DNA of 64,000 nucleotides from a virus (IMGVR_UViG_3300020220_004906:1-64000), one strand, 5' to 3'; shown: positions 1-16,808, numbered from the stretch's first letter. A program made the numbers and translations. Notes: generated from the sequence alone by a model not told the origin.

Positions 1-93
1 GTTTTTAATCATAAAGTGCATGAAATGGGGATCCTGATGGCGATCTGCGTCAGGATTCCTCATCAGCAACTGGCCACAGATGTTGAAAAATGA
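1..93 (+). CDS. 3' end of an upstream hypothetical CDS (partial)
   Basis: Frame 1 is open from the window start to TGA at 91-93, which overlaps the next ATG (ATGA coupling). Confidence 0.35.
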   Translation, partial: VFNHKVHEMGILMAICVRIPHQQLATDVEK

Positions 94-662
94 AAAAAAA
101 CATATTCATTGTGTATGGACACTACAGCGATAAATCTTTTAATGCTGCCATTAGAGACACTTTCATAGCCACTGCCAAACAAAAAGGCCACAACATAGAC
201 TGCGTGGACCTCTACAAAGAAAACTTTGATCCAGTGTATCGTGGTGAAAGTCCTGATGCAGTCACTCTATCACATCGCGAAAGGATCATGAAAGCGGACA
301 CCATTGTGTTGATTGCACCCATTTGGAATTTTAGAATGCCAGCCATACTGGAAGGATGGATTGACAAAGTGTTGGCACCACCTTTTGCATTTAGATTCAA
401 GCGATTGGTGGGCAACTATGGTTATCCCATTGGAAACCTTGCGGACAAAAATGCTGTGATCTTCTGTACCTATGGATCACCCAGACTGGCCATCACCACT
501 TTCTTTCTCAACCTACCAATCAGAAGATTGAAGCGAGGTGTGTTTCATATCTGTGGCATCAGAGACATCAAATACAGAAGATACTTTGCCGTGCCGTTCG
601 TGACCCCGGAAGAGCGCGCAGGATTCCTGCAGGATGTCAGGGACACAGCGGAGAATCTGTGA
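90..662 (+). CDS. NAD(P)H-dependent oxidoreductase, flavodoxin-like fold (Flavodoxin_2 / MdaB-KefF type)
   Basis: Family motifs GH..SFN..I, DLY..NFDP, ADTIVL.APIWNF.MPAILEGWIDKV. Confidence 0.85.
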   Translation: MKKNIFIVYGHYSDKSFNAAIRDTFIATAKQKGHNIDCVDLYKENFDPVYRGESPDAVTLSHRERIMKADTIVLIAPIWNFRMPAILEGWIDKVLAPPFAFRFKRLVGNYGYPIGNLADKNAVIFCTYGSPRLAITTFFLNLPIRRLKRGVFHICGIRDIKYRRYFAVPFVTPEERAGFLQDVRDTAENL

Positions 663-678
663 GGCATTTCATGGCAAG

Positions 679-686
679 TATAAATA
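679..686 (+). promoter_or_regulatory. T4 late-type promoter TATAAATA upstream of the csp leader
   Basis: Exact TATAAATA in the intergenic region ~125 nt before the csp ATG. Confidence 0.55.
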
Positions 687-812
687 ACAGTGAGTAATAA
701 CAGTAAAGTAAGGCAAGTAGAGACAGTAACAACGGGCACACAGTGCCAATAGAGATTTTCCCCACCCAACATACGGTACACAATATCAACAATCAACAGA
801 AAGAGTGAAACA

Positions 813-1010
813 ATGACACAAGGAACAGTGAAATGGTTCAATGCCCAGAAGGGTTTTGGATTCATAGCCACAGAGGACCGTGACGTGTTCGTTCACATCA
901 CCGCGGTTCAGGCCTCTGGCCTGGAAGGCCTAAACGAGGGCGACGCAGTGATGTTCGACATGGAGGACACCGCCAAGGGTCCTGCCGCCATCAACCTCAC
1001 AGTGCAGTAA
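813..1010 (+). CDS. cspA: Cold-shock protein (CSD)
   Basis: GTVKWFN..KGFGFI (RNP1) and DVFVH (RNP2); 65 aa. Confidence 0.95.
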
Positions 1011-1020
1011 TCAGCACACA

Positions 1021-1041
1021 GCCCAGGGCTGGTCCCTGGGC
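1021..1041 (+). terminator. GC-rich hairpin after csp
   Basis: GCCCAGGG-CTGGT-CCCTGGGC inverted repeat just after the stop codon; no clear U-tract. Confidence 0.45.
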
Positions 1042-1067
1042 AACACAGCATACAATATTACCAAAGG

Positions 1068-1095
1068 TTGACACACAGCCACAGTGTGCTAAAAT
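1068..1095 (+). promoter_or_regulatory. Sigma70-type promoter
   Basis: TTGACA-16 nt-TAAAAT with extended TG, upstream of the 1121 ORF. Confidence 0.65.
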
Positions 1096-1120
1096 ATATC
1101 CATAAACAAAGGAGAACAAC

Positions 1121-1282
1121 ATGAGTAATTTGTTCACAATCAAGAATGGCATCATTGCCGCAGTGGTGATCCTAGCGGTCGTCATCGGCTACTACTTGCT
1201 GAAGCCCGCGCCCAAGGCGCCAGCTCCGGTCAAGCCAGCAGTGACAGCCCCGGCCACACCGGCGGCACCTGCCAAGAAGTAA
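1121..1282 (+). CDS. Small single-pass membrane protein with Pro/Ala-rich tail (53 aa; not in ORF track)
   Basis: MSNLFTIKNGIIAAVVILAVVIGYYLLKPAPKAPAPVKPAVTAPATPAAPAKK; AAGGAG RBS, promoter upstream, hairpin downstream. Confidence 0.8.
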   Translation: MSNLFTIKNGIIAAVVILAVVIGYYLLKPAPKAPAPVKPAVTAPATPAAPAKK

Positions 1283-1300
1283 TCACACACATACTGCAAC

Positions 1301-1324
1301 ATCACAGGGCATATGCCCTGTGAT
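1301..1324. terminator. Perfect 24-bp palindrome between convergent genes, likely terminator
   Basis: ATCACAGGGCAT|ATGCCCTGTGAT. Confidence 0.55.
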
Positions 1325-1342
1325 TGTTAGGCAATAAAAAGT

Positions 1343-1894
1343 TTAATCTAAATTTATATTTTGAGGCAAGCCATCTAGGCTCATTTGAACACTGATTCTG
1401 TCGCTGGTAAGATTCTCCACACTATGCAGTATGCGAGTATCAAGAATGGCCCAACTTCCTTCTTCTAGTCGCCTTGAATCCAATACCTTTAGTTTGCTGT
1501 AATCGCCCACACGTGAATGTGGATCTCTCATTATAGGATGTCCCTCTTCCTGCCAGTAGGTCAGGGTGGCGCCACCATCACGAACCAGATACTGCAGCAC
1601 ATACTTGCGTGTCTGATCGGTATGCACCCCCGCGGTGCCGGGATTGGCAGACCCGAACGCGTAGCGTATGCCAACATCACGGTACACCGAAGTGATGTTG
1701 TGCTTCAACCATGACTCTAGCTCGGGAGATGCCGTGCAGATGGGATTTCGCGCGGAAACCACAATCGTGCCATCTTCTCGCACATGAGTCCATCCAGGAT
1801 AATCTCTCAGTATGTCCGCGGGCCCATGGGCTAATATGGCATCAATAAAATGTTGGGGGATGGGAGATAGATTCAGCACTTTGAAATACCACAT
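1343..1894 (-). CDS. Putative cupin/2OG-Fe(II) oxygenase-like protein
   Basis: HxD (GVHTD) plus distal LHSV. Start moved to MWYFK at 1894, which follows a TAAATA box. Confidence 0.55.
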   Translation of the reverse strand: MWYFKVLNLSPIPQHFIDAILAHGPADILRDYPGWTHVREDGTIVVSARNPICTASPELESWLKHNITSVYRDVGIRYAFGSANPGTAGVHTDQTRKYVLQYLVRDGGATLTYWQEEGHPIMRDPHSRVGDYSKLKVLDSRRLEEGSWAILDTRILHSVENLTSDRISVQMSLDGLPQNINLD

Positions 1895-1996
1895 ATTAGA
1901 AATATTTATGGGGTGATAATATGCAAGCAACTTTTATTGAATTTTTTTTATTATAAGCAGTCATATTAAAATTATATCATATATCTTAAATATTTT

Positions 1997-2380
1997 ATGC
2001 CTAGAGTATTATATCAAAAAAAAAATTTAAGACAAAGCGTGGATAGTTGGTACAAAAAACGCAAGAAATGCTTTATGTATCACTATCATCTGGTCAATGG
2101 GGGCAAGTTGCCAGAGGATTGGATCAATCTCAATACCATATCTGGCTGCCGCTTCCATGGCTGGGTTCAGTTGGGGCACCTACATCGTGGCGAATTATGG
2201 AGTTATGCCACTGCTCGGCATCGTACCTTGATCACAATGCGAGTGCCAGCAAACAGATTGTTGTGGCCAGAACAGTACCGCAAGGTTTCGCGCAGCATGC
2301 TGCACCAGCAAAAACAGTGGAAGAATCAAATTGATCGTTTATGTAAAACCTATGGTGATAAATCTGATCTTTGGGTTTAA
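1997..2380 (+). CDS. Hypothetical basic protein
   Basis: 127 aa ORF with TAAATA 4 nt before the ATG. Confidence 0.55.
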   Translation: MPRVLYQKKNLRQSVDSWYKKRKKCFMYHYHLVNGGKLPEDWINLNTISGCRFHGWVQLGHLHRGELWSYATARHRTLITMRVPANRLLWPEQYRKVSRSMLHQQKQWKNQIDRLCKTYGDKSDLWV

Positions 2381-2384
2381 ATAA

Positions 2385-3173
2385 TTAAACCACTCTCAAT
2401 TCAATATTAAGCAGATCGGTAATCAGCATGCAGCCAGGCGAATGAGTAATACACAAACTGGGTTTGGCTTTTTGTATTACAACCTGAGGAGTAACGCCAC
2501 AGGCCCAAAACATTGGCACATGATCTAGAGGTAGTACATCAGGAGTTTCTCCCCAATTGGGTTGATATAAATTTTTAATTCCTATTTCCGCCGGATCACC
2601 TACATGCACAGGACCACCGTGTACCTTAGGAAATTTAGAAGTTATTCTCACTACCTCTTCCGCTCGATCTTTTGGAAAGGATCTCATGCTCACAACCATT
2701 GGTCCCCAAAAACGTCCAGCAGGCCGACACAGTTGATTTGTTATATACATAGGCACAATGGTACCTTGTTTGATATGAGGTAAATGAAATCCCGCTTCTA
2801 GTAAAGGCAATTCAAAACTTAGGCTACAGCCCAACACAAAAGCCACAAGATCAAGACTCCAATAAGAATCAATGTTTGTGGGTTCATCTACTAACTCACC
2901 GTGACGGAACACTCGATATTTGGGTACATCGGTACGTATATCTAATTCACCCAGAGTGCAATTCAAGAAAGGGTCACCCGGGGTGCTCATACCAATGAGT
3001 GGACAAGGTTTTGGATTACGCTGGCAGAAAGCAGCAAATTCTATAGCATATTCTGCAGGAAGTATAACCACATTACCTTGCACATGTTTACTGGCAGCAC
3101 CCGTGGTATACCCACAGTATTTGCCCGCTCTGATGATTTCTCTCGCCTCGCGAGAATCTTGAACATTCAACAT
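2385..3173 (-). CDS. DUF1445 / UPF0317 putative hydro-lyase (D-glutamate cyclase family)
   Basis: QGNVVILP, FCQRNPKPCPL, DIRTDVPKY, GCSLSFE, FWACGVTPQ, THSPGCMLITD. Start taken at MLNVQ (3173). Confidence 0.9.
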   Translation of the reverse strand: MLNVQDSREAREIIRAGKYCGYTTGAASKHVQGNVVILPAEYAIEFAAFCQRNPKPCPLIGMSTPGDPFLNCTLGELDIRTDVPKYRVFRHGELVDEPTNIDSYWSLDLVAFVLGCSLSFELPLLEAGFHLPHIKQGTIVPMYITNQLCRPAGRFWGPMVVSMRSFPKDRAEEVVRITSKFPKVHGGPVHVGDPAEIGIKNLYQPNWGETPDVLPLDHVPMFWACGVTPQVVIQKAKPSLCITHSPGCMLITDLLNIELRVV

Positions 3174-3194
3174 TATCCAATACTTATAGACACT

Positions 3195-3872
3195 ATGAAA
3201 AACTTTTTCCAATTTGACAGTGCCTGTGTAAATATTCATATGTTTGCAACATTCCAAGATGTGTGGAAAAAAGAAGAACTGTTGTGGTTTTACCAAGACA
3301 TGCAGAGGGCCAAATGTACTTTGGAGAAACAGAACAGCAGCGATCCCAACTATAAAAATCCTTCTTGTTTGCGATGGCTACATAAGAAAGGCACCGATGC
3401 CAGAAATCGATTAGAAGAAAAAATTTTAAAATTGTTGCCCGATCATGAAATGACCTTTGCAGCCTATGTAGAACAATATCAACCCAACATGTTACATTTT
3501 GACAGTGATGGCGGCCCATTTGGTGCCACTTGTATCATACCTCTTCTAGATTATAAAGGTGACACAGACCAAACACTGGTGTTTGATTATCTTTGCAAAG
3601 ACGGAGAAACCACAAAATCAACGTTGGAAAAGCTGTGCAAGGAAACAGAGCATGGTAGGCCTAAATTCAAGCACACACAGCAATATAAATTAGATCATTG
3701 CGGATACAATTCTATTATAAATGCCACAAAACTTTTGGGAGTGTTCTATTATAGACAAGGGGACATGGCAGTGTTTGACAAACGGTTATTACACTGCTCA
3801 AACAACTGGAATCTCACGGACCCTGTGAGGGAACACAAGGACTTTATCTTAATACACACACAAGCAAAATAG
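3195..3872 (+). CDS. Putative 2OG-Fe(II)/cupin oxygenase-like protein
   Basis: LHFD...TCIIPL...GDMAVFD..LLHCS. Start moved to MKNFF (3195), divergent from DUF1445. Confidence 0.55.
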   Translation: MKNFFQFDSACVNIHMFATFQDVWKKEELLWFYQDMQRAKCTLEKQNSSDPNYKNPSCLRWLHKKGTDARNRLEEKILKLLPDHEMTFAAYVEQYQPNMLHFDSDGGPFGATCIIPLLDYKGDTDQTLVFDYLCKDGETTKSTLEKLCKETEHGRPKFKHTQQYKLDHCGYNSIINATKLLGVFYYRQGDMAVFDKRLLHCSNNWNLTDPVREHKDFILIHTQAK

Positions 3873-3876
3873 ACAA

Positions 3877-4020
3877 TTAGTCCTCGTCCCCGGGCCTATC
3901 TCCCCAGCGCTGATGGGCAGTTTCACGCTCTCCCCATAGTTCCGGCAAAGTCCACTCTCGCTGACCGTTATAATCTTCCATGCAGTTGCTCTCTTCCCAT
4001 TCCCACCACTGAGAAAGCAT
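3877..4020 (-). CDS. Small Trp/acidic-rich peptide (47 aa; not in ORF track)
   Basis: MLSQWWEWEESNCMEDYNGQREWTLPELWGERETAHQRWGDRPGDED; fills the gap; AGAAGGG upstream. Confidence 0.5.
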   Translation of the reverse strand: MLSQWWEWEESNCMEDYNGQREWTLPELWGERETAHQRWGDRPGDED

Positions 4021-4028
4021 GGGCCCTT

Positions 4029-4172
4029 CTAGGTTAGTAGTTTCCAAGCAATTATACCCATTATGATTATCAGCACAATTAGCAGTCTAATTGCCCAACA
4101 TCTAGGGCAAAATCCTTCGTGGAATCTATCGCGGTATTTCTGTAATAATTCACTGATTTTGCGGTTTTGCAT
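4029..4172 (-). CDS. Small membrane protein (47 aa; not in ORF track)
   Basis: MQNRKISELLQKYRDRFHEGFCPRCWAIRLLIVLIIIMGIIAWKLLT; CxxC then a TM helix; TAAATA upstream. Confidence 0.6.
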   Translation of the reverse strand: MQNRKISELLQKYRDRFHEGFCPRCWAIRLLIVLIIIMGIIAWKLLT

Positions 4173-4289
4173 AGCTTATGTTATTTAATAGTCATCATAC
4201 AGACTAAAACATTACCAAAAATAACCATTTACAGACGTTAGATTCATAAATAATTCTGTATACAAACCAAGACTACGTAGGAGACTTAG

Positions 4290-5339
4290 ATGTCAAAACA
4301 AAAAATAAGATGGCTCATCACACATGAACCGCAAGATCTATTCATTAGAGCGGCACGTTGTTTCGAGCAAAAATTAGACGCGAAGTTACCTGGAAAATTT
4401 GAATTAGAACTTTACACTTCTGTGGACGATATGGTGGCGAAAAATGCTGACATGTTTTCAGCTGAAGAAAAAGAAGTTTTAAAAGACAGATCACCGGTAC
4501 TTAAAGGCCTAGAAAGCGACAATGAATCAGTTGAAGGAAAAGATTCAAACTTTAAATACAGAATAGCTAAATGGGCGAAAGTATTTGAAATCTTAAATGA
4601 TGGAAGAATACATATGTCACAAGCACAGGTTAACATCATTGGTGGTTACTTAGACAAAACCATTTCTGTGTTAGACATGCCTTTTTTATTCAAAGACCAC
4701 AACCATGTTACTAGAACGGTAGAAGGTGCTGTTGGAAAAATTATATCCAGCAAGGTTCACAATAAAACAGGTATCAAGCCACTTTGCTACACCTACTCTG
4801 GTGGATACAGAGTGATTGGTGCGACCCAAGATATTAAATCTTTGGAAGATCTAAGAAATCAACCACACTTCATCACCACAACAGGTGTGTCAAGTCATTT
4901 GTTCAGATATGCAGGTGCTGAAAAAGCCACAGGCACTTGGAGCTTGACAGACAGAGATGTTCAAGATATGAATGTCAACGGTGGAGCGATTGAAACAACT
5001 TTGATTAGATTTACTGGCAAGTATGTTTTCAAAACAAACCACAGCATGTTCATGACATCAATTCTTTGCGGTAAAACGTTTTGGAATTCTTTATCTGCAC
5101 AAGAAAAAGAACTATTCGTTCAAGCCGGCCTAGAAACTTCTAGACAAGAAAGAATCTGGTCATTAGAAGATGCAGCTAAAATCGAAGCAGAAGCAAAAGA
5201 AAAAGGATTGGTAATCAATACTATTTCTGATGTAGAAACTGCAGAGCTTAAGAAAGCGGCAGAAAAATGTTATCTGTCCGGTTTCTTAGATCGTCAAGGC
5301 ATTGATCATAAAATTGTTGGTCTTGCATTGAGATCATAA
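4290..5339 (+). CDS. TRAP substrate-binding protein (DctP family) homologue, no signal peptide
   Basis: LDMPFLFKDHNHV.R..EG.VG, YSGGYR, TNHSMF, FWNSLS..EK; AGGAG RBS. Confidence 0.85.
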   Translation: MSKQKIRWLITHEPQDLFIRAARCFEQKLDAKLPGKFELELYTSVDDMVAKNADMFSAEEKEVLKDRSPVLKGLESDNESVEGKDSNFKYRIAKWAKVFEILNDGRIHMSQAQVNIIGGYLDKTISVLDMPFLFKDHNHVTRTVEGAVGKIISSKVHNKTGIKPLCYTYSGGYRVIGATQDIKSLEDLRNQPHFITTTGVSSHLFRYAGAEKATGTWSLTDRDVQDMNVNGGAIETTLIRFTGKYVFKTNHSMFMTSILCGKTFWNSLSAQEKELFVQAGLETSRQERIWSLEDAAKIEAEAKEKGLVINTISDVETAELKKAAEKCYLSGFLDRQGIDHKIVGLALRS

Positions 5340-5373
5340 AAAATCACACCTATAGGCACGGTAGTTAAATACC

Positions 5374-6279
5374 GTGTCTATGGACTCACATCACCCTCTA
5401 TATTTCCAATGTCGGCATGATCCGTCTCATGAGAGATACGGGTTATTACATCAAAAAAGCAATAGTTTTTATATTATTGATAGTGATCCGGCGTTGTTAA
5501 AAAAAGTTCAATTAACAGCCATGAGATATGAGGTACTACATCTAGTAAACATAGATCATTTTTTTACTTTTTTAGAAAAAATATGGAAGATTTTGGACAA
5601 ATATCAAATTAAAAGCATGACCGAAGCACATCATATACACGAGCTCAGGGCGGCAGTATATCTAAACGACAAATCAAGGACAGAAGATATTCAAAAATTT
5701 CTAAATAATGATAACTGTCATTTTTTTGGAATGACTGTAAGCACAACTAGATCTATTCCGTTGGACATAAATCATTATCGTTTGCAAGATAATATAATAA
5801 AACATCAAAAAAAAGATAAACTTTTTAATGATGAGTTGCAGGAAAAATTATTTTTGATTCGTCGAATCTTATATGTTCTTAAAGGAGTGTTTGAATATTC
5901 TACGGAATTTGTAAATTTGCAAGAAAGCATTTGTAACTTTGGATTAAAAGAATATCAAAAACATTTTGCTATCTGCAATGCAACAGACACTGCTATTCCA
6001 AAAATAGTAGAAGGGGAGATAGAAAGCAATGAAATAAGAGTCAAGTCGATACAACAATTATATAACACAATTTATAAACGTTTTAACGAAATAAATTTTA
6101 ATCAATCTAATAAGGAAATACTTTTACAGTTCATCTCAACTATATGGGCAAAAGAATGTATTACGGAAGCAGAGGAACAATACCCAGATTTTCAGATGAC
6201 ATACGATATTAACAAAATTAGAGGCATTTTAAGAAATGAAATAAACAATCTGATCGCATATTATGCTTCTGAATTTTAA
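5374..6279 (+). CDS. Hypothetical protein X1 (paralogue of 8745-9506)
   Basis: Shares P.YF..R, YGLL..K.N.FY, LLK..QL and LQEK.F.I..IL..L..VF with 8745-9506. Confidence 0.75.
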   Translation: MSMDSHHPLYFQCRHDPSHERYGLLHQKSNSFYIIDSDPALLKKVQLTAMRYEVLHLVNIDHFFTFLEKIWKILDKYQIKSMTEAHHIHELRAAVYLNDKSRTEDIQKFLNNDNCHFFGMTVSTTRSIPLDINHYRLQDNIIKHQKKDKLFNDELQEKLFLIRRILYVLKGVFEYSTEFVNLQESICNFGLKEYQKHFAICNATDTAIPKIVEGEIESNEIRVKSIQQLYNTIYKRFNEINFNQSNKEILLQFISTIWAKECITEAEEQYPDFQMTYDINKIRGILRNEINNLIAYYASEF

Positions 6280-6291
6280 CAGGATATACAA

Positions 6292-7554
6292 ATGAGTAAT
6301 TCAACGTCCGAAGGAGCACATCTTATAGAAAAAATAAGAGCACACAATAATTTCGACGCATCTGTGTATCTTAAAAAATTAAAAAATAATCAATGCATGT
6401 ATCTAACACAACTTGGGTCTGGACTATTCCACGAATGGGATATGTTATCAAAAGATGCGCAATATTATCTAATGATACCATATATATTAATTGGCACTCG
6501 AGATTTTAGACCACGCATAGGTAAATTTGAAGACCCGTGGAAATCCAAGGTACATCCATTGTATGCTGCACCACCTTTAAAATTTATAAAAGATTCACTA
6601 GCGGATATTGCAGACAATCGTGCAATCCAACTTATAAACAATGCCAAAAGTACTGGAAGAAATATTGCAGTGATGTGGAGTGGCGGCATCGACAGCACAG
6701 TTATGTTAACTTCCATCCTAAAGAACATAAGCGATTCAGATCAGGAACTACTCACGGTATTTTTAACCACCCACAGTATATCCGACAATCCAGATTTTTA
6801 TTTTAAATTTTTATCTTCTAATAAAAAAATTCAAATAAAAAATGCAGCAACATTAAGAGTGGACAACAGTTTTTTAGATAAAACTCTTTTATTAACAGGA
6901 GATCCCGGGGATGGTGTGTTTGGTCCATCTTCGTCCATGTACAGTTGGTTTTCCGAAAGTAAAAAACACTTAGAACCATGGCGCGATCACTTGAAGACAA
7001 TCATGCAACTTCTTGAACCCAACATAGAAAGAGATATGCTTGTACAACCGGGTATAGGTGAATGGTTTACTAATATCGTGACTCAAAATTTAGAGGAAAG
7101 CGGCTATGCTGATCATGTCAGCTCAGTGACCGATTGGTACTGGTGGACATATTTTAATTATAAATGGTCTTCCTTATGCTCTTATCCCCTACATAATAGT
7201 ATTATGGGAGAGCAACATAAAGGAATCACACACGATAATCATAAATTTTACGCTGAAAATATTTTTTATCATACTACACAATGGCAACTTTGGTCCTATT
7301 CAAATTTAAAAGAACTAGTTGGGCCGGATGTTTTTAAAACTCATAAGTTGAAGGCTAGAGAATATATCTATGAGTTTGATAAAAATTTTCAATATTTTTC
7401 TAGAAAAAGAAAAACATCAACCCCACCTCCCAACATGAAATTGCAAAAGTCATCGTTGATCGGGCATGACGAAAATTGGAAACCAATCTATTTAGACCAT
7501 TATCCAGATAGATATCTTATAACTCTTATTCTATCAAGATATAAAACGTCATGA
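6292..7554 (+). CDS. PP-loop ATPase (adenine nucleotide alpha-hydrolase; Asn-synthetase C-domain-like) 1
   Basis: IAVMWSGGIDST PP-loop and TGDPGD (cf. AsnB SGEGAD); no glutaminase domain. Confidence 0.75.
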   Translation: MSNSTSEGAHLIEKIRAHNNFDASVYLKKLKNNQCMYLTQLGSGLFHEWDMLSKDAQYYLMIPYILIGTRDFRPRIGKFEDPWKSKVHPLYAAPPLKFIKDSLADIADNRAIQLINNAKSTGRNIAVMWSGGIDSTVMLTSILKNISDSDQELLTVFLTTHSISDNPDFYFKFLSSNKKIQIKNAATLRVDNSFLDKTLLLTGDPGDGVFGPSSSMYSWFSESKKHLEPWRDHLKTIMQLLEPNIERDMLVQPGIGEWFTNIVTQNLEESGYADHVSSVTDWYWWTYFNYKWSSLCSYPLHNSIMGEQHKGITHDNHKFYAENIFYHTTQWQLWSYSNLKELVGPDVFKTHKLKAREYIYEFDKNFQYFSRKRKTSTPPPNMKLQKSSLIGHDENWKPIYLDHYPDRYLITLILSRYKTS

Positions 7555-7562
7555 AGTAAACC

Positions 7563-8741
7563 ATGAATCAACACCTAATAAATCTAAAAGATTCTCCTTG
7601 TATACCTTGCAATCGTTTAGCTATACTGAGGCCGTCTGAAAGATTCCCACACGCCAAATATTGGATAAGGACTCAACATCTATTAATGGGCGTAATAGAT
7701 TTAAGGGCTCGAGTGGGCACGTTTACAACGCCATGGGATATCGCCAGCAATTCTTTATATAAAATTCCAGAATTTAAAATTACTAACGATTCTCTAGAAG
7801 ATCTATTAGATGAAAGAGCATTAGAAATTTATTATTCTGCCAAAAGGACTAATAAAAAAATTGCTGTCATGTGGAGCGGGGGGATCGACAGCACCTCGGT
7901 GTTGACTGCGTTCCTAAAAAATGTTCCGATCGCTGACAAAAATATTATTACGGTGTTGTGCGATACTAATTCTATTTTAGAAAATATTGAATTTTATAAA
8001 AAATTTATTTCAAATAAATTAACATGCATACATTACAGGACCATTAACTTGACCGAGGAATTCTTACAAAGTTATATATTGCTACACGGAGATCCTGGGG
8101 ATTGTTTATTTGGTCCTAGCATTTCCAAATATCAATACTTCATAGATCGCGGGCTACATTTAGAGCCATGGAAAAACCATCTAGGTAAAATGAAAGAATT
8201 ATTAGAGATACCCCAAGTTGATCCCATGTCGTATGAACCAGGGTTTGGGGATTGGTATGTAAATAAAATTACGAATAATTTAGAGGAAACAAAGCAGTCA
8301 GCATATCTCACTTCAATTGCCGAGTGGTGGTTTTGGACCTATTACAACTTCAAATGGGAATTCAGTTGTCAGCGTCCATTTGCATATTTAAGGAGGGATT
8401 TCACAACTAAATTTAGCGACAATAGTATAAAAGAATTTGCTCAAAATACTTTTTTTAATACTGAAAAATTTCAACAGTGGGCATATTCAAACATTAAGAA
8501 AAATATACCCAAAGATTTTTCATTACACAAACAACAAGTCAAGATGTACATATACGAGTTTACAAAAAATTTAGATTATTTAAAATACAAATCTAAATTG
8601 CCAGCGAGGCCAGCAAATCTTGATTTGATGACATCGTCTCCCTTCCGACCGATCTATTATACAAAAAATTGGCAAGGCGTGTTAGATGATTCGCTTTCTA
8701 TTAAAACCCTGAAAATATTGTTAGAGAGGTACCAAGGATAA
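7563..8741 (+). CDS. PP-loop ATPase (Asn-synthetase C-domain-like) 2, paralogue of 6292-7554
   Basis: IAVMWSGGIDST, HGDPGDCLFGPS, HLEPW, T.NLEE and W.W.Y.N.KW shared with the previous gene. Confidence 0.75.
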   Translation: MNQHLINLKDSPCIPCNRLAILRPSERFPHAKYWIRTQHLLMGVIDLRARVGTFTTPWDIASNSLYKIPEFKITNDSLEDLLDERALEIYYSAKRTNKKIAVMWSGGIDSTSVLTAFLKNVPIADKNIITVLCDTNSILENIEFYKKFISNKLTCIHYRTINLTEEFLQSYILLHGDPGDCLFGPSISKYQYFIDRGLHLEPWKNHLGKMKELLEIPQVDPMSYEPGFGDWYVNKITNNLEETKQSAYLTSIAEWWFWTYYNFKWEFSCQRPFAYLRRDFTTKFSDNSIKEFAQNTFFNTEKFQQWAYSNIKKNIPKDFSLHKQQVKMYIYEFTKNLDYLKYKSKLPARPANLDLMTSSPFRPIYYTKNWQGVLDDSLSIKTLKILLERYQG

Positions 8742-8744
8742 TTT

Positions 8745-9506
8745 ATGACAGGAATTGTTAAATCGCCTTATTATTTTTCTGTACGCTCACATATTGAGAC
8801 AGACCTTAATTTTTATGGACTGCTAGATATAAAACAAAATTGTTTTTATATGTTACACAGCAACCATTCATTGTTAAAATTTTTTCAACTTATGTTGTTA
8901 AAAAATTTCTATACTTTTTCTATCGTTAGTTTCAAACACCTCAATTGTGATATGCACAAAAATATTGACAACAGCGATTGTATAAATTGGGGCGGGACCG
9001 CCGACATGATCAACAGCCTAGAATTCGAAGTCAATACTTCGATGAATGAAGTAAAATTAATAAAAGTTACACCAGGTTATGATTTAATATTACAAGAAAA
9101 AATGTTTTTTATAATGTATATCTTGTCAAAATTAGATAATGTTTTTCAAAAAATACGGAAACACGAAATAGATATAAAAGAAACCATGCACGAGGGATAT
9201 GACGAATTAAGAAAATATCTTGAAATGCTCTGCCCAGATGATAAGAACATAAGTGAGTTTATCAACGAGGAAGACAAACAATTGCGTTCTAAATCCCAAG
9301 AATTAGATGTATATTGGCAAAAAATACTTTTATTTTTTTATAATCTTGATTTCCGCAATAATTCAACGATCTCCATGTTTGATTCTTTTAAAAAATATAT
9401 AGAAACAGCCGAATTTGGGCTCGAACGTTTTAGAAGGTTATATCGACACCCAGATGCAGCGCTAGAAGAATTTCACCAAATTTTAAATATAACTAGAAGA
9501 TCTTAA
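8745..9506 (+). CDS. Hypothetical protein X2 (paralogue of 5374-6279)
   Basis: Same shared motifs as X1. Confidence 0.75.
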   Translation: MTGIVKSPYYFSVRSHIETDLNFYGLLDIKQNCFYMLHSNHSLLKFFQLMLLKNFYTFSIVSFKHLNCDMHKNIDNSDCINWGGTADMINSLEFEVNTSMNEVKLIKVTPGYDLILQEKMFFIMYILSKLDNVFQKIRKHEIDIKETMHEGYDELRKYLEMLCPDDKNISEFINEEDKQLRSKSQELDVYWQKILLFFYNLDFRNNSTISMFDSFKKYIETAEFGLERFRRLYRHPDAALEEFHQILNITRRS

Positions 9507-9602
9507 GCCAAAATATCTAATATCCTTGGTAAAGTAGCATAAATACTTTTAACAAATTACCTTAATTTGTTATTTTAACGTTAAAAACAAAGGGAATAAA
9601 AA

Positions 9603-10079
9603 ATGACTAAAACTACTAAGATTAGATGGGTTATAGCACACGAGCCTTTATCTTTATTTGTGAGAGCAGCTAAAGATTTTCAAGACTATGTGAATCAAGC
9701 TCAGACTGCAGAAAAAATAGAAGTTGAAGTTATGACTCTAAGTGAGTACAGCGAGAGATACAACAACGGTGTTGTTGTAACTAAACACGATTTACTTGAC
9801 CTTATGGAACAAGGCAAAATTGAAATGTCGCAAATGTACACAACTTGGTTAGCTGAAAAATTTGATCAAGACATGTTAGCATTAGATATGCCTTTCATAT
9901 TCACAGATCATGATCATGCAACTAGAGTATTAGAAGGTGAAGTGGGACAGTTTTTATTAAACAAGATCACTGAAAAATCTAATGTAAGAGGCATGGCGTT
10001 CACCTACTCAGGTGGATTTAGAAACGTAATTTCTAGTAAAAAAGTTGATAAGTTATCAGACTTAACTACTAAACACTAA
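9603..10079 (+). CDS. DctP-family protein, N-terminal half
   Basis: KIRWVIAHEP, LDMPFIFTDHDHA.RVLEGEVG, YSGGFR..., ending at LSDL just before the conserved K-[IV]-R strand. Confidence 0.85.
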   Translation: MTKTTKIRWVIAHEPLSLFVRAAKDFQDYVNQAQTAEKIEVEVMTLSEYSERYNNGVVVTKHDLLDLMEQGKIEMSQMYTTWLAEKFDQDMLALDMPFIFTDHDHATRVLEGEVGQFLLNKITEKSNVRGMAFTYSGGFRNVISSKKVDKLSDLTTKH

Positions 10080-10100
10080 TTACTATCTTACCAAAATTAA

Positions 10101-10128
10101 AAGGGCGGCAGCGATGTCGCCCTTTTTT
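10101..10128 (+). terminator. Rho-independent terminator inside the split dctP
   Basis: AAGGGCGGCA-GCGA-TGTCGCCCTT followed by a T-run. Confidence 0.85.
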
Positions 10129-10160
10129 ATTCTACCTTATATACAAACTAAATATTTTTA

Positions 10161-10646
10161 ATGAAGGTACGAACAAATAGAAATCCAGTTGCCAAAGCAA
10201 CTTTCAAAGCACTAGGCGCCGAAGGACATGTTTCTGAAATTGAAGAAGTAAAAGGACTGATGGAAGATGGTACAGTAGAGGGCGGCGAGACTGTATATTC
10301 AAGAATTTATCCATTAGAACAAAATCAAGTCACAGAATCGGTAATTGACACACAACATAGTTTGTTCCTCACAAGTATGATCATGAGAAACGATTTCTAT
10401 GAAAAATTATCTCCAGAAGTTCAAGCAATAATAAAGGAAGCCGCTATTAAAGCCGGACGTAAAGAAAGAGAAACTACAATCATGGACGGAGAAGAAGCCA
10501 AAGAAAGATTAAAAGCCGAAGGAGTTGCGATTCATGAATTAACACCAGAAGAAAAAGAAGAATTTATTGAAAAAACCAAAGCGGTGTATGAAGAATTTAA
10601 AGACAAATTCACACCTGGATTGATTGAAAAAATTAAAAAGGCCTAA
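10161..10646 (+). CDS. DctP-family protein, C-terminal half, copy 1
   Basis: Starts MKVR (conserved Arg strand); FKALGA, TQHSLF, FYEKLSPEVQ.II.EAA, LKAEGV.I; own TAAATA box at 10149. Confidence 0.85.
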   Translation: MKVRTNRNPVAKATFKALGAEGHVSEIEEVKGLMEDGTVEGGETVYSRIYPLEQNQVTESVIDTQHSLFLTSMIMRNDFYEKLSPEVQAIIKEAAIKAGRKERETTIMDGEEAKERLKAEGVAIHELTPEEKEEFIEKTKAVYEEFKDKFTPGLIEKIKKA

Positions 10647-10649
10647 TAC

Positions 10650-11141
10650 ATGAAAGTTCGTACCAATAAAAATCCAGTTGCCAAAGCAACATTTAAAGCA
10701 CTAGGAGCCGACATAAATTCGCAAGTTATAGAAATAGAAGACCTTAAAGCAAAAATAGAGGCCAACGAGGTACAAGCAGGAGAAGGCATATATTCGAGAA
10801 TATATCCACTAGAGCAAAATCAAGTGCTTCGATCGGTATTGGATACACAGCACAGTCTATTCCTCACAAGCATGATCATGAGAAACGACTTCTACGAAAA
10901 ACTATCACCCGAGGTCAAGTCGGTGCTAAAAGAAGCCGCTATTAAAGCCGGACGTAAAGAAAGAGAAACTACCATACAAGATGGAGAAGAAGCCAAAGAA
11001 AGATTAAAAGCCGAAGGCGTGTCCATACATGAATTGACCCCAGAAGAAAAAGAAGAATTTATTGAAAAAACTAGAGTAGTATACGACACGTTCAAAGATT
11101 TTTTTACCCCCGGACTGATCGAAAAAATCAAAAAGTCTTAA
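10650..11141 (+). CDS. DctP-family protein, C-terminal half, copy 2
   Basis: Highly similar to 10161-10646; diverges mainly around residues 20-50. Confidence 0.85.
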   Translation: MKVRTNKNPVAKATFKALGADINSQVIEIEDLKAKIEANEVQAGEGIYSRIYPLEQNQVLRSVLDTQHSLFLTSMIMRNDFYEKLSPEVKSVLKEAAIKAGRKERETTIQDGEEAKERLKAEGVSIHELTPEEKEEFIEKTRVVYDTFKDFFTPGLIEKIKKS

Positions 11142-12457
11142 GCTGTTTCTTTTAAAACTTTTTTAAAACTATCCACTATCTTATCTATCTCTTTCTTTTC
11201 GATGATAAGAGGTGGGGCCAACGTTAACACATCACCCCCTGTTAATCTTACGTAACAATTTTGCTCATGAAACATTTTTCTGAACACGTCGTTGGCTCTA
11301 ACAAATGGTTTATCTGGCAAAGGGTCTAGTTCTATAGCCCCTAACATACCAATATTCCTGATATCTATAATATGTTTACTGCCTCGCAGTGAATGTAGAG
11401 CGTCTTCAAAATATTTTATTAATTCTTGATCTTTGTTAAACAAATTTTCCTTCTCATACAAGTTGATAGCAGCAAGAGCTGCAGCACAAGCAAGTGGGTG
11501 AGCGGAATAGGTATATCCGTGATAAAGCTCTATTGAATTTTTTTTTGCACTCATAAAAAGATTATAGATCTTATCATGTATAATTGTTGCTCCCATCGGA
11601 ACAGTTCCGCTAGTTAAGCCTTTAGCTATAGTCATCAAGTCGGGTTCGATATTAAAAAAATCTGCGGCAAAGGGTTTTCCTAATCTTCCAAAACCGGTGA
11701 TAACTTCATCAAATATTAAAAGTATTTCATTATCAGTGCAAATTTTTCTTAATTTTTCTAAATAACCCACCGGTGGAATTAAAACTCCGGCAGTCCCGGC
11801 GACCGGCTCAACAATAACTGCCGCGATATTACTTGCGCCATGTTTTTCAATTTGTTTTAACAAATCATCTGCTAGATGAGTGCCCCACTTAGGCTGCCCT
11901 TTAGAATACGCATTGTGCTCAAGATTATGTGTATGTGGAAGATGATAGACATCGGGTAAAAATCTTTCTGCCTGCATATTGATAAAAAGATTTCCCACAG
12001 TAGATCCTCCAAAATTGGTACCGTGGAATCCACGATTTCGTCCTATTATGATTTTTTTGTTTGTCTTGCCTTGCAGCTTGAAGTAAGATAAAGCAATTTT
12101 TAAAGCAGTTTCTACAGCTTCCGAACCGGAATTTGTAAAAAATATTTTATTTAAATTTTTTGGAGTAATAGAACTTAATTTCTCAGCCAGCCTAAATGCG
12201 CCAGGATGGCTCATTTGATATGAAGGTACAAAGTCCAATTTTGCTGCTTGATCTTGTATTGCTCTCACGATCTCGTCTCTGTTGTGCCCAGCATTGCAAC
12301 ACCATAGTCCTCCGTGGGCATCTAAAATTTTATCGTTGTAGATAGTAAAATAGTACATGTCTTTAGCTCTATCGATAATTCTAGGTCTGGGTAAGTTTTT
12401 AAAAATATTGTTAGGTGTAAATGGTAACCAAAGATGATCTAAATTTAAATTTTCCAT
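11138..12457 (-). CDS. Class III PLP aminotransferase (omega-amino acid--pyruvate type)
   Basis: GGLWCCNAGH, NSGSEAVETA, FHG, EPVAG, FDEVITGFGRLG, AKGLTSG (PLP Lys), HGYTYSAHP. Confidence 0.92.
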   Translation of the reverse strand: MENLNLDHLWLPFTPNNIFKNLPRPRIIDRAKDMYYFTIYNDKILDAHGGLWCCNAGHNRDEIVRAIQDQAAKLDFVPSYQMSHPGAFRLAEKLSSITPKNLNKIFFTNSGSEAVETALKIALSYFKLQGKTNKKIIIGRNRGFHGTNFGGSTVGNLFINMQAERFLPDVYHLPHTHNLEHNAYSKGQPKWGTHLADDLLKQIEKHGASNIAAVIVEPVAGTAGVLIPPVGYLEKLRKICTDNEILLIFDEVITGFGRLGKPFAADFFNIEPDLMTIAKGLTSGTVPMGATIIHDKIYNLFMSAKKNSIELYHGYTYSAHPLACAAALAAINLYEKENLFNKDQELIKYFEDALHSLRGSKHIIDIRNIGMLGAIELDPLPDKPFVRANDVFRKMFHEQNCYVRLTGGDVLTLAPPLIIEKKEIDKIVDSFKKVLKETA

Positions 12458-12527
12458 ATCGAATATGTTTATTTACATACTGAATTTTTACCAATTATTT
12501 TTTTAAAAATTTAATTTGGCTAGATAA

Positions 12528-12556
12528 TTGACATTCACATTCACAAGTGTTACACT
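12528..12556 (+). promoter_or_regulatory. Sigma70-type promoter of clpP
   Basis: TTGACA-17 nt-TACACT, 8 nt before ATG 12565. Confidence 0.7.
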
Positions 12557-12564
12557 ACTATCAT

Positions 12565-13161
12565 ATGCCATTGATTCCAATAGTAATAGAGCAAACAAGC
12601 AAAGGCGAGCGCAGTTATGACATATTCAGCCGACTGCTGAAAGATAGGATCATTGTGTTGGAAGGCCCGATCGAAGAACACTCAGCATCGGTTATTTGTG
12701 CTCAATTATTATTTTGCGAATCACAGGCACCAGAGAGAGATATAACAATCTACGTCAATTCACCAGGCGGATTGGTCACAGCAGGCATGGCCATATATGA
12801 TACCATGCAGTATATAAAATGTGATGTGCAAACTATTGTAATGGGACAGGCATGTTCAATGGGATCATTGTTAGCAGCAGCAGGCACCAAAGATAAAAGA
12901 TTGATATTGCCACATGCTAGACACATGATACATCAGCCACTGGGCGGAGCTTCTGGACAGGCAACAGATGTGCAAATTCAAGCTAACGAGTTGTTGAGAT
13001 GGAAAGATGAATTAACACGAGTTTACGAGAAGCACACAGGCCAACCATACGAAAAATTAAAAGCCGACATGGAGAGAGATAATTTCATGACAGCCGAACA
13101 GGCCGTGGCATATGGCCTAGCCGATAAAGTTGTTACCAGCAGAGAAGCGGAAAATAAATAG
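12565..13161 (+). CDS. clpP: ATP-dependent Clp protease proteolytic subunit
   Basis: [30 protein letters not shown] (Ser), MIHQP (His), ERDNFM (Asp). Start at MPLIP. Confidence 0.95.
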
Positions 13162-13192
13162 GCATTAGTCCAATGCCAGCGTTTGATTTAAC

Positions 13193-14485
13193 ATGTCTTT
13201 AGAGAAAAACTTCTGCTCGAGTCCTTGGTTCCATATGAGGATACTGCCATCTGGAGCACTGAGATATTGCCGATGGATGGAAGATAAAAAAAATCCAATC
13301 GCTTCTGACCTAACCCAACAAGATTTTTTACAATATTTTCAAAAGGACATGTCTTCGCTGCGTGTAAAAATGTTGAAAGGAGAACACATTCCCTCTTGTG
13401 ATCAATGTGCCAAGATGGAACAACACGGCAAGATAAGTGGCAGGGAAAAGCAATTATTAAAGGTAGGGATCAAACTAGATCACTTTGAAAAAACTTTTAG
13501 ATCCAGTACCTTTTACGATCAATTTGAAAGATCCGCCAACAACGACGGGTCGACCGAGCTATGGCCGCAAGACTGGCAAATTGATTTAGGAAACTACTGC
13601 AATAGTGCCTGTATATTTTGCAAACCACAATATAGTTCTAGACTTACCACAGAATTTAAAACACTAGGGTTGATCGATCAATCACCTCAGCAGAACTGGA
13701 CCGACAACGAACAAGCGGTTGACAGATTTGTAGAATTGCTATCGCAGTCCAAAAAATTATCCTACCTACATTTCCTCGGAGGCGAGACTATGATTACTCC
13801 GGCATTTAAAAAAATTTTAATGAAACTCCAAGACAAAGGATTGCACAATGACACGTCAATAGGATTCACGACCAATCTGACCGTATGGGATGAGTCCATT
13901 GTTGCATTATTGAAGCAGTATAAAGAAGTTAATCTAGGCATGAGCGTGGAATGCTTGCACCCGATAAATGATTATCTGCGCTGGCCCAGCAACATTGAAA
14001 AGGTTAAGGAAAATTTAGTGAAATGGTTGCAACTGGGTAAACAATTAGGCTGGCTAATTCAATTTAGGATTACGCCAACAGTTTTCAGTATTGCGCATCT
14101 AAAAACGATATATGAATTTGCCTATTCGTGGGATGTCGGAGTAGAGAGTTGCAATTTTTTACATGATCCGTATTTTATGAGAATGTCGATATTGCCAATG
14201 CACGTGAGAAAGAACATTGCCAATGATTTACAACACTGGATCAATGGAAAAAAATTATTGTTCTCAGAGGAGAAAATTATTAATACCAGAGATCCAAATT
14301 TAGCCAGAGATTGTATAATTCAAGATGCAATGAGTTACGTGGATTACTTGCAAAATGCACCAGATGAATCAGCCAGTTGGACAGCTCTGGTATCTTATTT
14401 GAAAAAAATAGAAAGTTCTAGGAATAATTCAATCTTAGATTACGCACCCGAATATGAAAAATTTTTACGTTCAGCAGGATACTAA
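13193..14485 (+). CDS. Radical SAM protein with N-terminal SPASM/twitch-like Cys cluster
   Basis: CNSACIFC, GGE, TTNLT; N-terminal FC..PW...C...CxxC. Confidence 0.85.
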   Translation: MSLEKNFCSSPWFHMRILPSGALRYCRWMEDKKNPIASDLTQQDFLQYFQKDMSSLRVKMLKGEHIPSCDQCAKMEQHGKISGREKQLLKVGIKLDHFEKTFRSSTFYDQFERSANNDGSTELWPQDWQIDLGNYCNSACIFCKPQYSSRLTTEFKTLGLIDQSPQQNWTDNEQAVDRFVELLSQSKKLSYLHFLGGETMITPAFKKILMKLQDKGLHNDTSIGFTTNLTVWDESIVALLKQYKEVNLGMSVECLHPINDYLRWPSNIEKVKENLVKWLQLGKQLGWLIQFRITPTVFSIAHLKTIYEFAYSWDVGVESCNFLHDPYFMRMSILPMHVRKNIANDLQHWINGKKLLFSEEKIINTRDPNLARDCIIQDAMSYVDYLQNAPDESASWTALVSYLKKIESSRNNSILDYAPEYEKFLRSAGY

Positions 14486-14885
14486 TTTAAACATAAACCT
14501 CACTTTATCACCAATAAAAGATAAAGAGTTTCCCTATGTGATTTTTACTTTTGACACAAACATAATACACGAGGGAATATTGACAGAAACTGCATCATTT
14601 GCACTAAGCAAATCCTTGCTGGAGGCCTTTGATTTGTCCGTAGAATTAAAGCACAAAAACTATGATGTATCTCCGGGCACTGCGGTATCTATTTCAAGCC
14701 TGCGCATCGATGATTTTGAAATTGTGCCGGGCTGGACACAACTTGCGTCATACGAGAATGATTCAAAAATGTCAGGCCCAACAAACTATATAGGATACAA
14801 TGGCACATGGAAGTTGCAGGTGCCCGAACCATTTTATAGATGGCGCCATAAAACTACAGGACAGGGCTGGCTGCTGGAACCATGA
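14454..14885 (+). CDS. Hypothetical protein
   Basis: 143 aa ORF overlapping the radical SAM stop. Confidence 0.6.
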   Translation: MKNFYVQQDTNLNINLTLSPIKDKEFPYVIFTFDTNIIHEGILTETASFALSKSLLEAFDLSVELKHKNYDVSPGTAVSISSLRIDDFEIVPGWTQLASYENDSKMSGPTNYIGYNGTWKLQVPEPFYRWRHKTTGQGWLLEP

Positions 14886-14920
14886 ATTTTACAAATATAA
14901 TTTTATATCTTAAATAAATT

Positions 14921-15466
14921 ATGTTGCTTACTGTACACTTAAAACACGATTTATCGATCATAGCTAACGCCGACCATCGAGTGCATGAGGCAAGCTCCAT
15001 AGGCACAAAAATATTTGACGAAAATAATAAATTTCCTAAAACCTATGTTTTAGAAAATACACGTATCCATCAGTTATGGTGGACGAAAGAACAATTGGAT
15101 TTTAAATCGATAGGCCAAGAGCTGGGCATGACTGTATGCACAGTAAGCAGCATCATAATTCCTCCCGGTTCTGTAATACCATTGCACCAGGACACATTTC
15201 ACAAATTAAGAACACAATTTCCCGATCATCCAGGACACATGGTTAGGGCGGTGATCTATGCTTCTGAATATGATATGGGACAATTCACTCAGTATCTAGA
15301 TGCCGGCCGCATACATAACAGCACCGATTGGAAAGTGGGAGATGGTACAATTTGGGACGACCAAGTGCCGCACGTCACTGTCAACGGCAGCATGAAAGAT
15401 CTTTGCACAGTTAACTTTTCCGGATTCATGGAAAAAGAAGTTGCCTTTTATCCACTTATATTTTGA
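14921..15466 (+). CDS. Cupin/2OG-Fe(II) oxygenase-like (AspH-like) protein
   Basis: PG..IPLHQD, WK.GD..IWD...PH...N. Confidence 0.65.
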   Translation: MLLTVHLKHDLSIIANADHRVHEASSIGTKIFDENNKFPKTYVLENTRIHQLWWTKEQLDFKSIGQELGMTVCTVSSIIIPPGSVIPLHQDTFHKLRTQFPDHPGHMVRAVIYASEYDMGQFTQYLDAGRIHNSTDWKVGDGTIWDDQVPHVTVNGSMKDLCTVNFSGFMEKEVAFYPLIF

Positions 15467-15516
15467 AATACAAATAGAACAATATAAAAAAATCTATCTA
15501 TAGATATCTTTATTTT

Positions 15517-15630
15517 TTATTTTTTTTTGAACCAGTTTATAGGATTTATTTTCGAAGACAGGTCTTCAACTTTTTCGTTGAGATACCATCCCGCTATTAA
15601 ACCTATAATAAGACCTAATGTAAAAAACAT
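15517..15630 (-). CDS. Small membrane protein (37 aa; not in ORF track)
   Basis: MFFTLGLIIGLIAGWYLNEKVEDLSSKINPINWFKKK; AGGAGG RBS and TAAATA upstream. Confidence 0.75.
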   Translation of the reverse strand: MFFTLGLIIGLIAGWYLNEKVEDLSSKINPINWFKKK

Positions 15631-15667
15631 GCCGATCCTCCTATATGAGTATTTACCAAAATAAAGT

Positions 15668-15704
15668 TATAAATATTGACGTGAAAAGTAACCCATAGTA
15701 TACT
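15668..15704 (+). promoter_or_regulatory. Adjacent TATAAATA box and sigma70-type promoter
   Basis: TATAAATA at 15668-15675, then TTGACG-17 nt-TATACT at 15676-15704. Confidence 0.6.
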
Positions 15705-15766
15705 TTTACAATGAGTAATATTCAGATGAATTTAAAAAAATCAATAACAATAAAAAAGGATATTGC

Positions 15767-16110: not shown

Positions 16111-16145
16111 ACAATATTAAATTGTATTGTACTATGGTAAACCAA

Positions 16146-16174
16146 TTGACACAACCTTTCTTATCCTGTACAAT
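16146..16174 (+). promoter_or_regulatory. Sigma70-type promoter of the FTR1 gene
   Basis: TTGACA-17 nt-TACAAT. Confidence 0.7.
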
Positions 16175-16804: not shown

Positions 16805-16808
16805 ACAG

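Follow-up and report, generated by a model that had tools for sequence, protein, structure and literature searches.

What could a phage do with transporter binding proteins that appear to stay inside the infected cell and are encoded side by side with enzymes of the asparagine-synthetase type? This question is raised by a cassette of eight genes at positions 4290-11141 of the viral sequence IMGVR_UViG_3300020220_004906:1-64000 (hereafter the window, that is, the whole stretch of 64,000 nucleotides (nt) analysed), which encodes DctP-like proteins (A and a split copy, A'), PP-loop synthetases (C and C') and partner proteins of these (B and B'). We propose, with a probability of about 0.5, that the cassette is a capture-and-amidation module, which would bind a carboxylic acid in the cytoplasm and convert it to an amide. 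The window belongs to a 75.5-kilobase (kb) IMG/VR virus record with a CheckV completeness estimate of 14%, and its source is an uncultured giant T4-like phage, which carries, among other myovirus genes, those for a tail sheath of 1035 amino acids (aa), a tail tube, a large terminase and a DnaB-type helicase.

Eight co-directional open reading frames (ORFs), all on the plus strand and separated by gaps of 3-96 nt, follow one another in the order A-B-C-C'-B'-A'N-A'C1-A'C2, exactly where the first-pass annotation of this DNA had placed them:

4290..5339, plus strand: A, DctP-like protein without signal peptide, 349 aa (PF03480, E 1.5e-25)
5374..6279, plus strand: B, partner protein of the fast-evolving B family, 301 aa, paralogue of B'
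6292..7554, plus strand: C, stand-alone AsnB-class PP-loop synthetase, 420 aa, with all family-invariant residues present
7563..8741, plus strand: C', stand-alone AsnB-class PP-loop synthetase, 392 aa (AlphaFold2 model and fold matches)
8745..9506, plus strand: B', partner protein, 253 aa, modelled as a small alpha/beta N-domain and then a helical bundle
9603..10079, plus strand: A'N, N-terminal half of the split DctP-like protein, 158 aa (PF03480 positions 9-134)
10080..10160, plus strand: spacer of 81 nt between A'N and A'C1, with a hairpin and T-run at 10099-10126
10161..10646, plus strand: A'C1, C-terminal half, 161 aa (PF03480 positions 138-284), starting with MKVR
10650..11141, plus strand: A'C2, second, alternative C-terminal half, 163 aa (PF03480 positions 138-284), starting with MKVR

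The same eight genes, in the same order, are present in a relative, L005 (related loci are designated by L and a number), whose C' is ~84% identical to that of the window. The ratio of nonsynonymous to synonymous substitutions (dN/dS) against L005 lies between 0.03 and 0.23 across the whole cassette, with 0.17 for A, 0.11 for B and the lowest values for the three A' pieces (0.03-0.08; A'N 0.03-0.08, A'C1 0.055). Since L005 conserves both the gene set and its order, and taking into account these ratios, the arrangement is due neither to chance nor to decay, and all eight genes are working and under purifying selection. The mirror order itself, which had been taken as a feature of the system, is lineage-specific: A-B-C-C'-B'-A' is confined to the window and L005, the next relatives show x-C-C-B-C-A'N-A'C, and the usual unit elsewhere is B followed by C, in one to three tandem repeats, with the DctP-like gene being optional. 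No true relatives of the cassette, of C' or of the viral DctP were found among GenBank phages by blastn and tblastn.

The DctP-like pieces exceed the PF03480 cut-off (23.4 bits) with 90.5 bits for A, 60.7 for A'N, 102.9 for A'C1 and 83.0 for A'C2. They share a full-length profile match with the DctP binding proteins of tripartite ATP-independent periplasmic (TRAP) transporters (SiaP, the isethionate binder 8t9t, 4ovs and 4xfe), and the two carboxylate-clamp arginines of these binders are kept in the full-length viral members and in A'. Unlike them, the phage proteins lack a signal peptide, usually occur without DctQM and are encoded beside ATP-dependent ligases; moreover, one copy is split and has two alternative C halves, and copy A has no second arginine. 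The absence of a signal peptide, first claimed for the window, where every DctP piece starts 4-8 residues before the first beta-strand, holds across the viral clade: in 56 of 56 non-redundant sequences the first strand is preceded by 4-8 residues and by no hydrophobic leader, the start lying at the motif K-I-R-W-V-[IL]-A-H-E-P (341 matches were returned by an IMG/VR search with viral DctP-like sequences). Judging by its N-termini, this clade is cytoplasmic. Phage-encoded PstS and other exported auxiliary proteins are likewise transporter binding proteins carried by phages; PstS-type proteins, however, are exported and feed the host transporter, whereas the DctP-like proteins of the window, as encoded, would not be exportable via Sec or Tat. 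When DctP-like proteins fused to other domains were searched for, bacterial chemoreceptor fusions were the only ones found.

Full-length viral members keep their two arginines 20 residues apart, in GGFR and K-L-R, a spacing that presumably matches the R127/R147 carboxylate clamp of SiaP. Taking into account that A'N covers positions 9-134 of the profile and each C piece positions 138-284, A' is one protein cut in two, with its second half duplicated. The first clamp arginine (GGFR) lies in A'N, and the second in the MKVR with which both A'C1 and A'C2 start, the MKVRT of A'C1 aligning with the LKVRT of the isethionate-binding DctP 8t9t; thus, a complete ligand site requires two chains to come together. 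The protein is split at the exact boundary of D-L-T-x and (L to M)-K-V-R, and an unsplit A' orthologue of 317 aa, 73% identical over the N half, is encoded in L104/L105. In L013 the halves are joined by TAA TAA ATG, without a hairpin; in the window and L005 they are separated by a spacer of 81-83 nt with a hairpin of 12 pairs, its T-run and then, immediately ahead of the ATG, TAAATA. This hairpin (10099-10126), the strongest terminator-like site within 3800-12600, differs between the two phages by one compensatory stem-pair change. That it could be a repeated mobile element was considered and rejected, as it has one copy in the window. The split form is retained in L005, L013, L019, L024 and L028, whose C enzymes are given as ~40-50% identical to those of the window (~84% for the C' of L005). 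The two C halves are 80% identical to each other, their differences concentrate in codons ~21-47, after the second clamp arginine, and each has a one-to-one orthologue in L005; they would fit two alternative binding specificities.

Regarding the other two families, the paralogies and motifs reported in the first-pass annotation were found again: C and C' are 39% identical over 366 residues (E 3e-90), with IAVMWSGGIDST and GDPGD in common, and B and B' are 25% identical (E 4e-9), with the blocks YGLL..K.N.FY and LQEK.F.I..IL in both. WSGGIDST and G-D-P-x-D are invariant in a family alignment of 31 sequences that includes C and C', and we take GDPxD to correspond to the GEGSDE acid motif of AsnB. 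Neither C nor C' falls into a Pfam or PHROG family; C has no Pfam match, the Pfam scan of C' yields just a sub-threshold argininosuccinate-synthase match, and the family scores 11.2 bits (E 0.01) against PF00733 (Asn_synthase), below the cut-off of 21. A profile search of C against PDB sequences gave matches confined to the PP-loop of LarE and TilS.

The AlphaFold2 model of C' (predicted local distance difference test score, pLDDT, 91.7) matches the AsnB-class synthetases over 186-273 aligned residues, with TsnB9 at the top (Z 11.9, 273 aligned, root mean square deviation 5.0), followed by beta-lactam synthetase (Z 10.8), human ASNS (10.5), carbapenam synthetase CarA (9.3) and E. coli AsnB (8.3); other PP-loop folds (NAD synthetase, GMP synthetase, LarE, TilS and the rest) reach Z 5.6 at most, and the top Foldseek matches agree with the AsnB-class assignment. 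The earlier proposal that these ATPases are of the Asn-synthetase/beta-lactam-synthetase type but without a glutaminase domain is thereby sustained, with Z values of 8.3-11.9 for the fold. The lengths of C and C' are 392-420 aa, no GATase Pfam match was obtained for either, and the C' model aligns to its templates from residue ~140 on, past most of the glutaminase domain.

With the AsnB class, C and C' share the fold as a whole, the PP-loop SGGxDS and, following the fourth strand, an acidic G-[DE]-x-G-D motif. The family differs from AsnB and its relatives in having no N-terminal glutaminase domain, in staying below the PF00733 threshold, in ~75 unrelated N-terminal residues, in a family-specific Trp-rich C-terminal half, in being always accompanied by a B-type partner and in being almost exclusively viral in the searches made. 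Taking into account the AsnB-class fold, the lack of a glutaminase domain and the invariant SGGIDST and GDPxD, C and C' are read as putatively competent carboxylate-adenylating, amide-forming enzymes, which would use ammonia or another amine, and not glutamine. By analogy with the synthetases of this class, adenylation of a carboxylate followed by formation of an amide or lactam would be the chemistry to be expected. The family comprises more than 211 protein clusters and has 501 matching stretches in IMG/VR, and a tblastn search with C' gave none in 50,697 GenBank phage records. Among 185,579 prokaryote species genomes a single match was obtained, on a 3.5-kb contig of a Polynucleobacter metagenome-assembled genome, in a scan with two narrow peptide patterns that distant bacterial relatives could escape.

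The B proteins, for which no Pfam or PHROG family was found with B as the query, appear to be the companions of C. An iterated profile search from B and B' gathered 58 distinct proteins from 40 loci. Directly upstream of 118 C genes, a profile-detectable B was found in 64 cases and another uncharacterised protein, mostly of 180-280 aa, in 34 more, the remaining C genes being mostly at contig ends; one of the unrecognised upstream groups consists of remote B relatives (hhalign 95%, E 4e-8). In L066 (18-1814, on a contig shared with L088) a B-like region and a C domain form a single ORF of 598 aa, connected by a collagen-like linker rich in Gly, Pro and Thr. The first-pass suggestion that B works with C is favoured by this position in most related loci, by the fusion and, weakly, by complex prediction. 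B is therefore read as a non-catalytic subunit of C, with a role as substrate also being possible, and it may set the specificity for the substrate or the amine, or replace the missing glutaminase domain. As for its structure, the model of B' (pLDDT 85.9) shows a small alpha/beta domain and then a helical bundle. The fold check proposed earlier for both families was thus informative for C', with its AsnB-class fold, but not for B', whose whole-model searches gave generic helical-bundle matches only (best Z 8.9, YicC); a search of the ESM Atlas with B returned nothing usable.

Do the binding proteins and the ligases belong together? The gene-neighbourhood search suggested in the first-pass annotation was carried out on 48 non-redundant DctP-like loci flanked on either side by two or more genes, and the proposed co-occurrence was recovered: a PP-loop gene lies within two genes of the DctP-like gene in 34 (28 of the C family and 6 of f6, a second SGGxDS family), and within 10 kb in 40. 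By a rough estimate, chance adjacency would amount to a few percent, given 1-3 such genes per 200-350 genes. The C genes that adjoin a DctP-like gene belong to separate clades of the C-family tree (FastTree). In 18 of the 48 loci a small DUF2061 membrane protein (PF09834, E 5e-13) is also encoded within two genes of the DctP-like gene, and the orders DUF2061-DctP-C and B-C-DctP recur. No published description of an association between DctP and ligases was found, in agreement with the initial impression that it is absent from described systems.

The absence of dctQM, also noted at the outset, needs a qualification. DctQ and DctM were not found in the 75-kb record of the window (14% complete); nevertheless, the module is not independent of TRAP transport everywhere, as DctQ, DctM and an exported DctP are all present in 3 of the 28 related phage records, and in the two inspected they are immediate neighbours of PP-loop and signal-less DctP genes. 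L166 (G002:C1:17500-24500) contains a desaturase, a gene x, DctQ, DctM, a DctP of 363 aa with a clear signal peptide and an f6 PP-loop gene; L167 (G020:C1:26000-38000) contains a signal-less DctP, DctQ, DctM, an exported DctP, another signal-less DctP, two unknowns and C. The presence of dctQM and exported DctP forms had initially been regarded as an argument against a cytoplasmic module; since the exported and the cytoplasmic forms coexist as separate proteins, it does not refute it. Their coexistence within one cluster points instead to a succession of import, capture and ligation. TctC-type binders and fatty-acid desaturases recur near these clusters.

On this basis, the following process can be proposed. 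In the infected cell, the DctP-like proteins without signal would bind an organic acid by means of the two-arginine carboxylate clamp, which in A' would be rebuilt from two polypeptides, the N half and either of the alternative C halves. The acid would then be handed to the C enzymes, whose PP-loop (SGGIDS) and GDPGD motif would serve to adenylate its carboxylate with ATP, and the adenylated acid would be joined to ammonia or an amine, giving rise to an amide, with B bound to C as a non-catalytic subunit. In some related phages the acid might be imported by the adjacent phage TRAP transporter; in the phage of the window, it would come from host transport or metabolism. The cassette is probably expressed late in infection. 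The arrangement described in the first-pass annotation is thus confirmed, and its interpretation, a cytoplasmic module in which a repurposed solute-binding fold carries, senses or is itself modified by a ligand handled by a B/C ligase, is partly supported.

Several points weigh against this proposal. The ligand, the turnover of ATP and the product are all hypothetical. A, a divergent paralogue with an insertion of ~40 residues, has lost the second clamp arginine, FITT replacing K-x-R when it is aligned to solved DctPs and viral DctPs. The prediction of a B'-C' complex gave an interaction prediction score from aligned errors (ipSAE) of 0.54, against 0.00 for three controls, which is a weak support: few true pairs score at or below 0.60, the mark used being reached by 58 of 80 solved complexes and 2 of 110 mismatches. 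The B family has a mean column identity of 17%, with one Leu and one Lys as its nearly invariant residues, and such a near-absence of invariant positions would fit a substrate or a decoy as well. A complete phage genome of 236 kb has C with B but no DctP-like gene, and in many phages B-C is located between a phrog_3636 DNA-binding protein and a family-B DNA polymerase; in the whole contigs checked, the distance between this polymerase-side B-C and the DctP-like gene ranges from tens to more than 100 kb. Thus, the two parts can occur apart, and the substrate of C may not be a free acid.

The last possibility leads to the main rival, a modification of macromolecules similar to that carried out by CmoY, in which phage DNA (or RNA or protein) would bear a carboxyl handle for C and B to amidate and the DctP-like protein would supply a carboxylate-bearing amine partner, for instance an amino acid. 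CmoY, from Synechococcus phage S-B43, is an Asn-synthetase homologue that ligates glycine to DNA 5-carboxymethylcytosine, a base installed by CmoX using the carboxy-S-adenosylmethionine (Cx-SAM) made by CmoA (PMC12783734). It is the closest characterised analogue of the cassette ligases: annotated as 271 aa in GenBank MN018232, it is, like C, a small glutaminase-less Asn-synthetase homologue of a T4-like phage, and it shows that such ligases can attach an amine to a carboxyl handle. The location of B-C beside the DNA polymerase in many relatives would be in keeping with this rival, and so would a protein of 1599 aa from the diatom Seminavis robusta (P0121), which contains a true C-family domain (residues 369-648, hhalign 99.2%) with the Trp-rich motifs of the family and, fused to it, a cupin, a CmoB-like methyltransferase and a CmoA-like domain that stays below the TIGR00740 cut-off (E 7e-19). 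A metagenomic protein similar to it, P0122, combines a C-family domain with a CmoB-like methyltransferase and a cupin. However, unlike the ligases of the window, CmoY has neither a B partner nor a DctP-like neighbour, S-B43 contains no C-family gene and no viral DctP-like gene, and the match between the C family and SpCmoY is weak, confined to the surroundings of the acidic motif (hhalign 39% over 38 columns), where G-D-P-x-D lines up with the GIGADG of CmoY in the profile alignment. A partnership with CmoA and CmoX was tried and rejected, as no TIGR00740 or PF00145 match occurs in the record of the window (14% complete); neither CmoA nor a cytosine-C5 methyltransferase was found in 27 related phage records, two of them at least 94% complete, nor any relative of CmoX, CmoY or CmoA in the ~160 loci fetched. 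Membership in the CmoA-CmoX-CmoY system consequently fails. Taking into account, in addition, that B and C are not notably basic, a modification of this kind appears unlikely, even as the leading competitor of the capture-and-amidation module.

Other explanations separate the components of the cassette or give them more familiar tasks. The DctP-like proteins could act as a sponge or sensor, sequestering or sensing a host metabolite or signal, with the ligases being unrelated genes that share a variable region. This is consistent with the DctP-like genes that in several phages stand alone between the structural genes phrog_3636 and f7, in the tail-to-terminase block, with the existence of C without a DctP-like gene, and with the alternative C halves differing mainly after the second clamp arginine; nevertheless, 71% of loci have a PP-loop gene adjacent to the DctP-like gene, in various gene orders and with different C clades, a pattern that is hard to explain without a shared function, and we consider this explanation improbable. 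Even less credit can be given to a maturation of the lasso-cyclase type, in which B or a small peptide would acquire an isopeptide or lactam through C, B being substrate, leader-binder or scaffold. The fold class of C also includes lasso cyclases and beta-lactam synthetase, lasso systems comprise an Asn-synthetase-like enzyme that needs a helper encoded next to it, as C and B might, B evolves fast around one nearly invariant lysine, and B-C pairs have multiplied in tandem; but the fold of B is different from that of the B1/B2 helpers and unmatched, B is predicted to fold as a two-domain protein of 250 aa and not as a peptide, B, B' and their neighbours gave no PqqD-like or transglutaminase-like Pfam match, and no small precursor-like ORF accompanies C in a conserved manner across the loci. 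That these are auxiliary genes for nutrient uptake, exported to serve a host TRAP transporter in the manner of phage PstS, would agree with their membership in PF03480 and with the DctQM encoded by some relatives; it is made very improbable by the signal-less starts of all 56 viral sequences and by the fact that phage TRAP systems have their own signal-bearing DctP beside the signal-less one. Finally, a gene in two pieces with a terminator-like hairpin between them looks broken, and the split A' and the extra copies could be pseudogene debris. This reading is already disfavoured, to the point of deserving almost no weight, given that the A' pieces have the lowest dN/dS of the cassette, that the split is kept in the five relatives mentioned above and that the break is clean, a stop and then an ATG at one codon position.

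Around the cassette, some further observations can be made. On its right side, a convergent gene for a class-III aminotransferase (11138-12457, minus strand; NCBIfam 'omega-aminotransferase AptA', 614.8 bits against a cut-off of 500) is absent at that position in L005 and replaced by an unrelated gene of 283 aa in L013, and thus gives the impression of a bacterial-type gene that was inserted recently. It is followed, at 12547-14485, by genes for a ClpP protease (PF00574, E 5e-81) and a twitch-domain radical SAM protein (NF033640, 243 bits), which occupy the same place beside the cassette in L005. On its left side, a D-glutamate-cyclase-like protein (2385-3296, minus strand; PF07286, E 1e-57) is overlapped on the opposite strand by an uncharacterised protein of 264 aa (3078-3872, plus strand) when first start codons are used; homologues of both genes are found upstream of the cassette in L005, L013 and L028. 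The gap of 417 nt that separates them from A (3873-4289) is mostly taken up by two minus-strand ORFs (3877-4172), one of 56 aa and a second of 47 aa that includes a hydrophobic stretch, and contains no obvious leader RNA. The heptamer ATAAATA is under-represented in the window, with 12 sites (4246, 9539, 13154 and 52950 among them) against 20.9 expected, and copies lie shortly upstream of several gene starts, including those of A (38 nt) and A'N, a placement that would fit T4-type late promoters.

In related loci the DUF2061 gene often precedes the DctP-like gene (e.g., L101 9701-9955), and it was not found in the window. Bacterial DUF2061 genes have been listed among iron-responsive or Fur-associated genes (PMC3751524, PMC12442407). 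A gene for an FTR1-type iron permease is present at 16205-16804 of the window. Five tandem transfer RNA (tRNA) genes lie at 16845-17236 (Rfam RF00005, 58-71 bits); apart from sub-threshold noise, they are all that an Rfam scan detected over positions 1-20000. A QueC-like PP-loop gene is located at 23626-24282 (minus strand; phrog_1550, E 2e-12), and a canonical Asn_synthase match (PF00733, 163 bits) at 38556-39440, within an ORF of 571 aa (38409-40124, minus strand). The phrog_3636-like gene of the window (57116-57550) adjoins f7 (56585-57106; both on the minus strand), with no DctP in between; elsewhere, a DctP-like gene or a B-C pair is inserted after the phrog_3636-like gene.

A broader and more tentative view, which we regard as possible at a low level of confidence, is that giant aquatic phages have a pathway of their own, in which an organic acid is taken up or captured, held on a former transporter protein that is now cytoplasmic, and converted by a partner-dependent AsnB-type ligase into an undescribed amide. 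This amide could be a metabolite, such as a chelator or a signal, or a hypermodification of DNA, the latter version drawing on the diatom protein in which a C-family domain and carboxy-SAM enzymes are joined, and the split binder would provide two specificities from one N half. Since CmoY-type ligases can create new DNA bases, the product of the cassette could be a new DNA modification or a phage-made metabolite. If the capture-and-amidation module is true, it would provide, as far as we could find, the first transporter binding protein working inside the cell with an amide ligase, and it would define a large and almost purely viral enzyme family, with 501 matches in IMG/VR and none in cultured phages. 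A naturally split binder, with its clamp across two polypeptides and interchangeable second halves, is in itself an unusual protein architecture, and the kit to which it belongs recurs in hundreds of uncultured phages.

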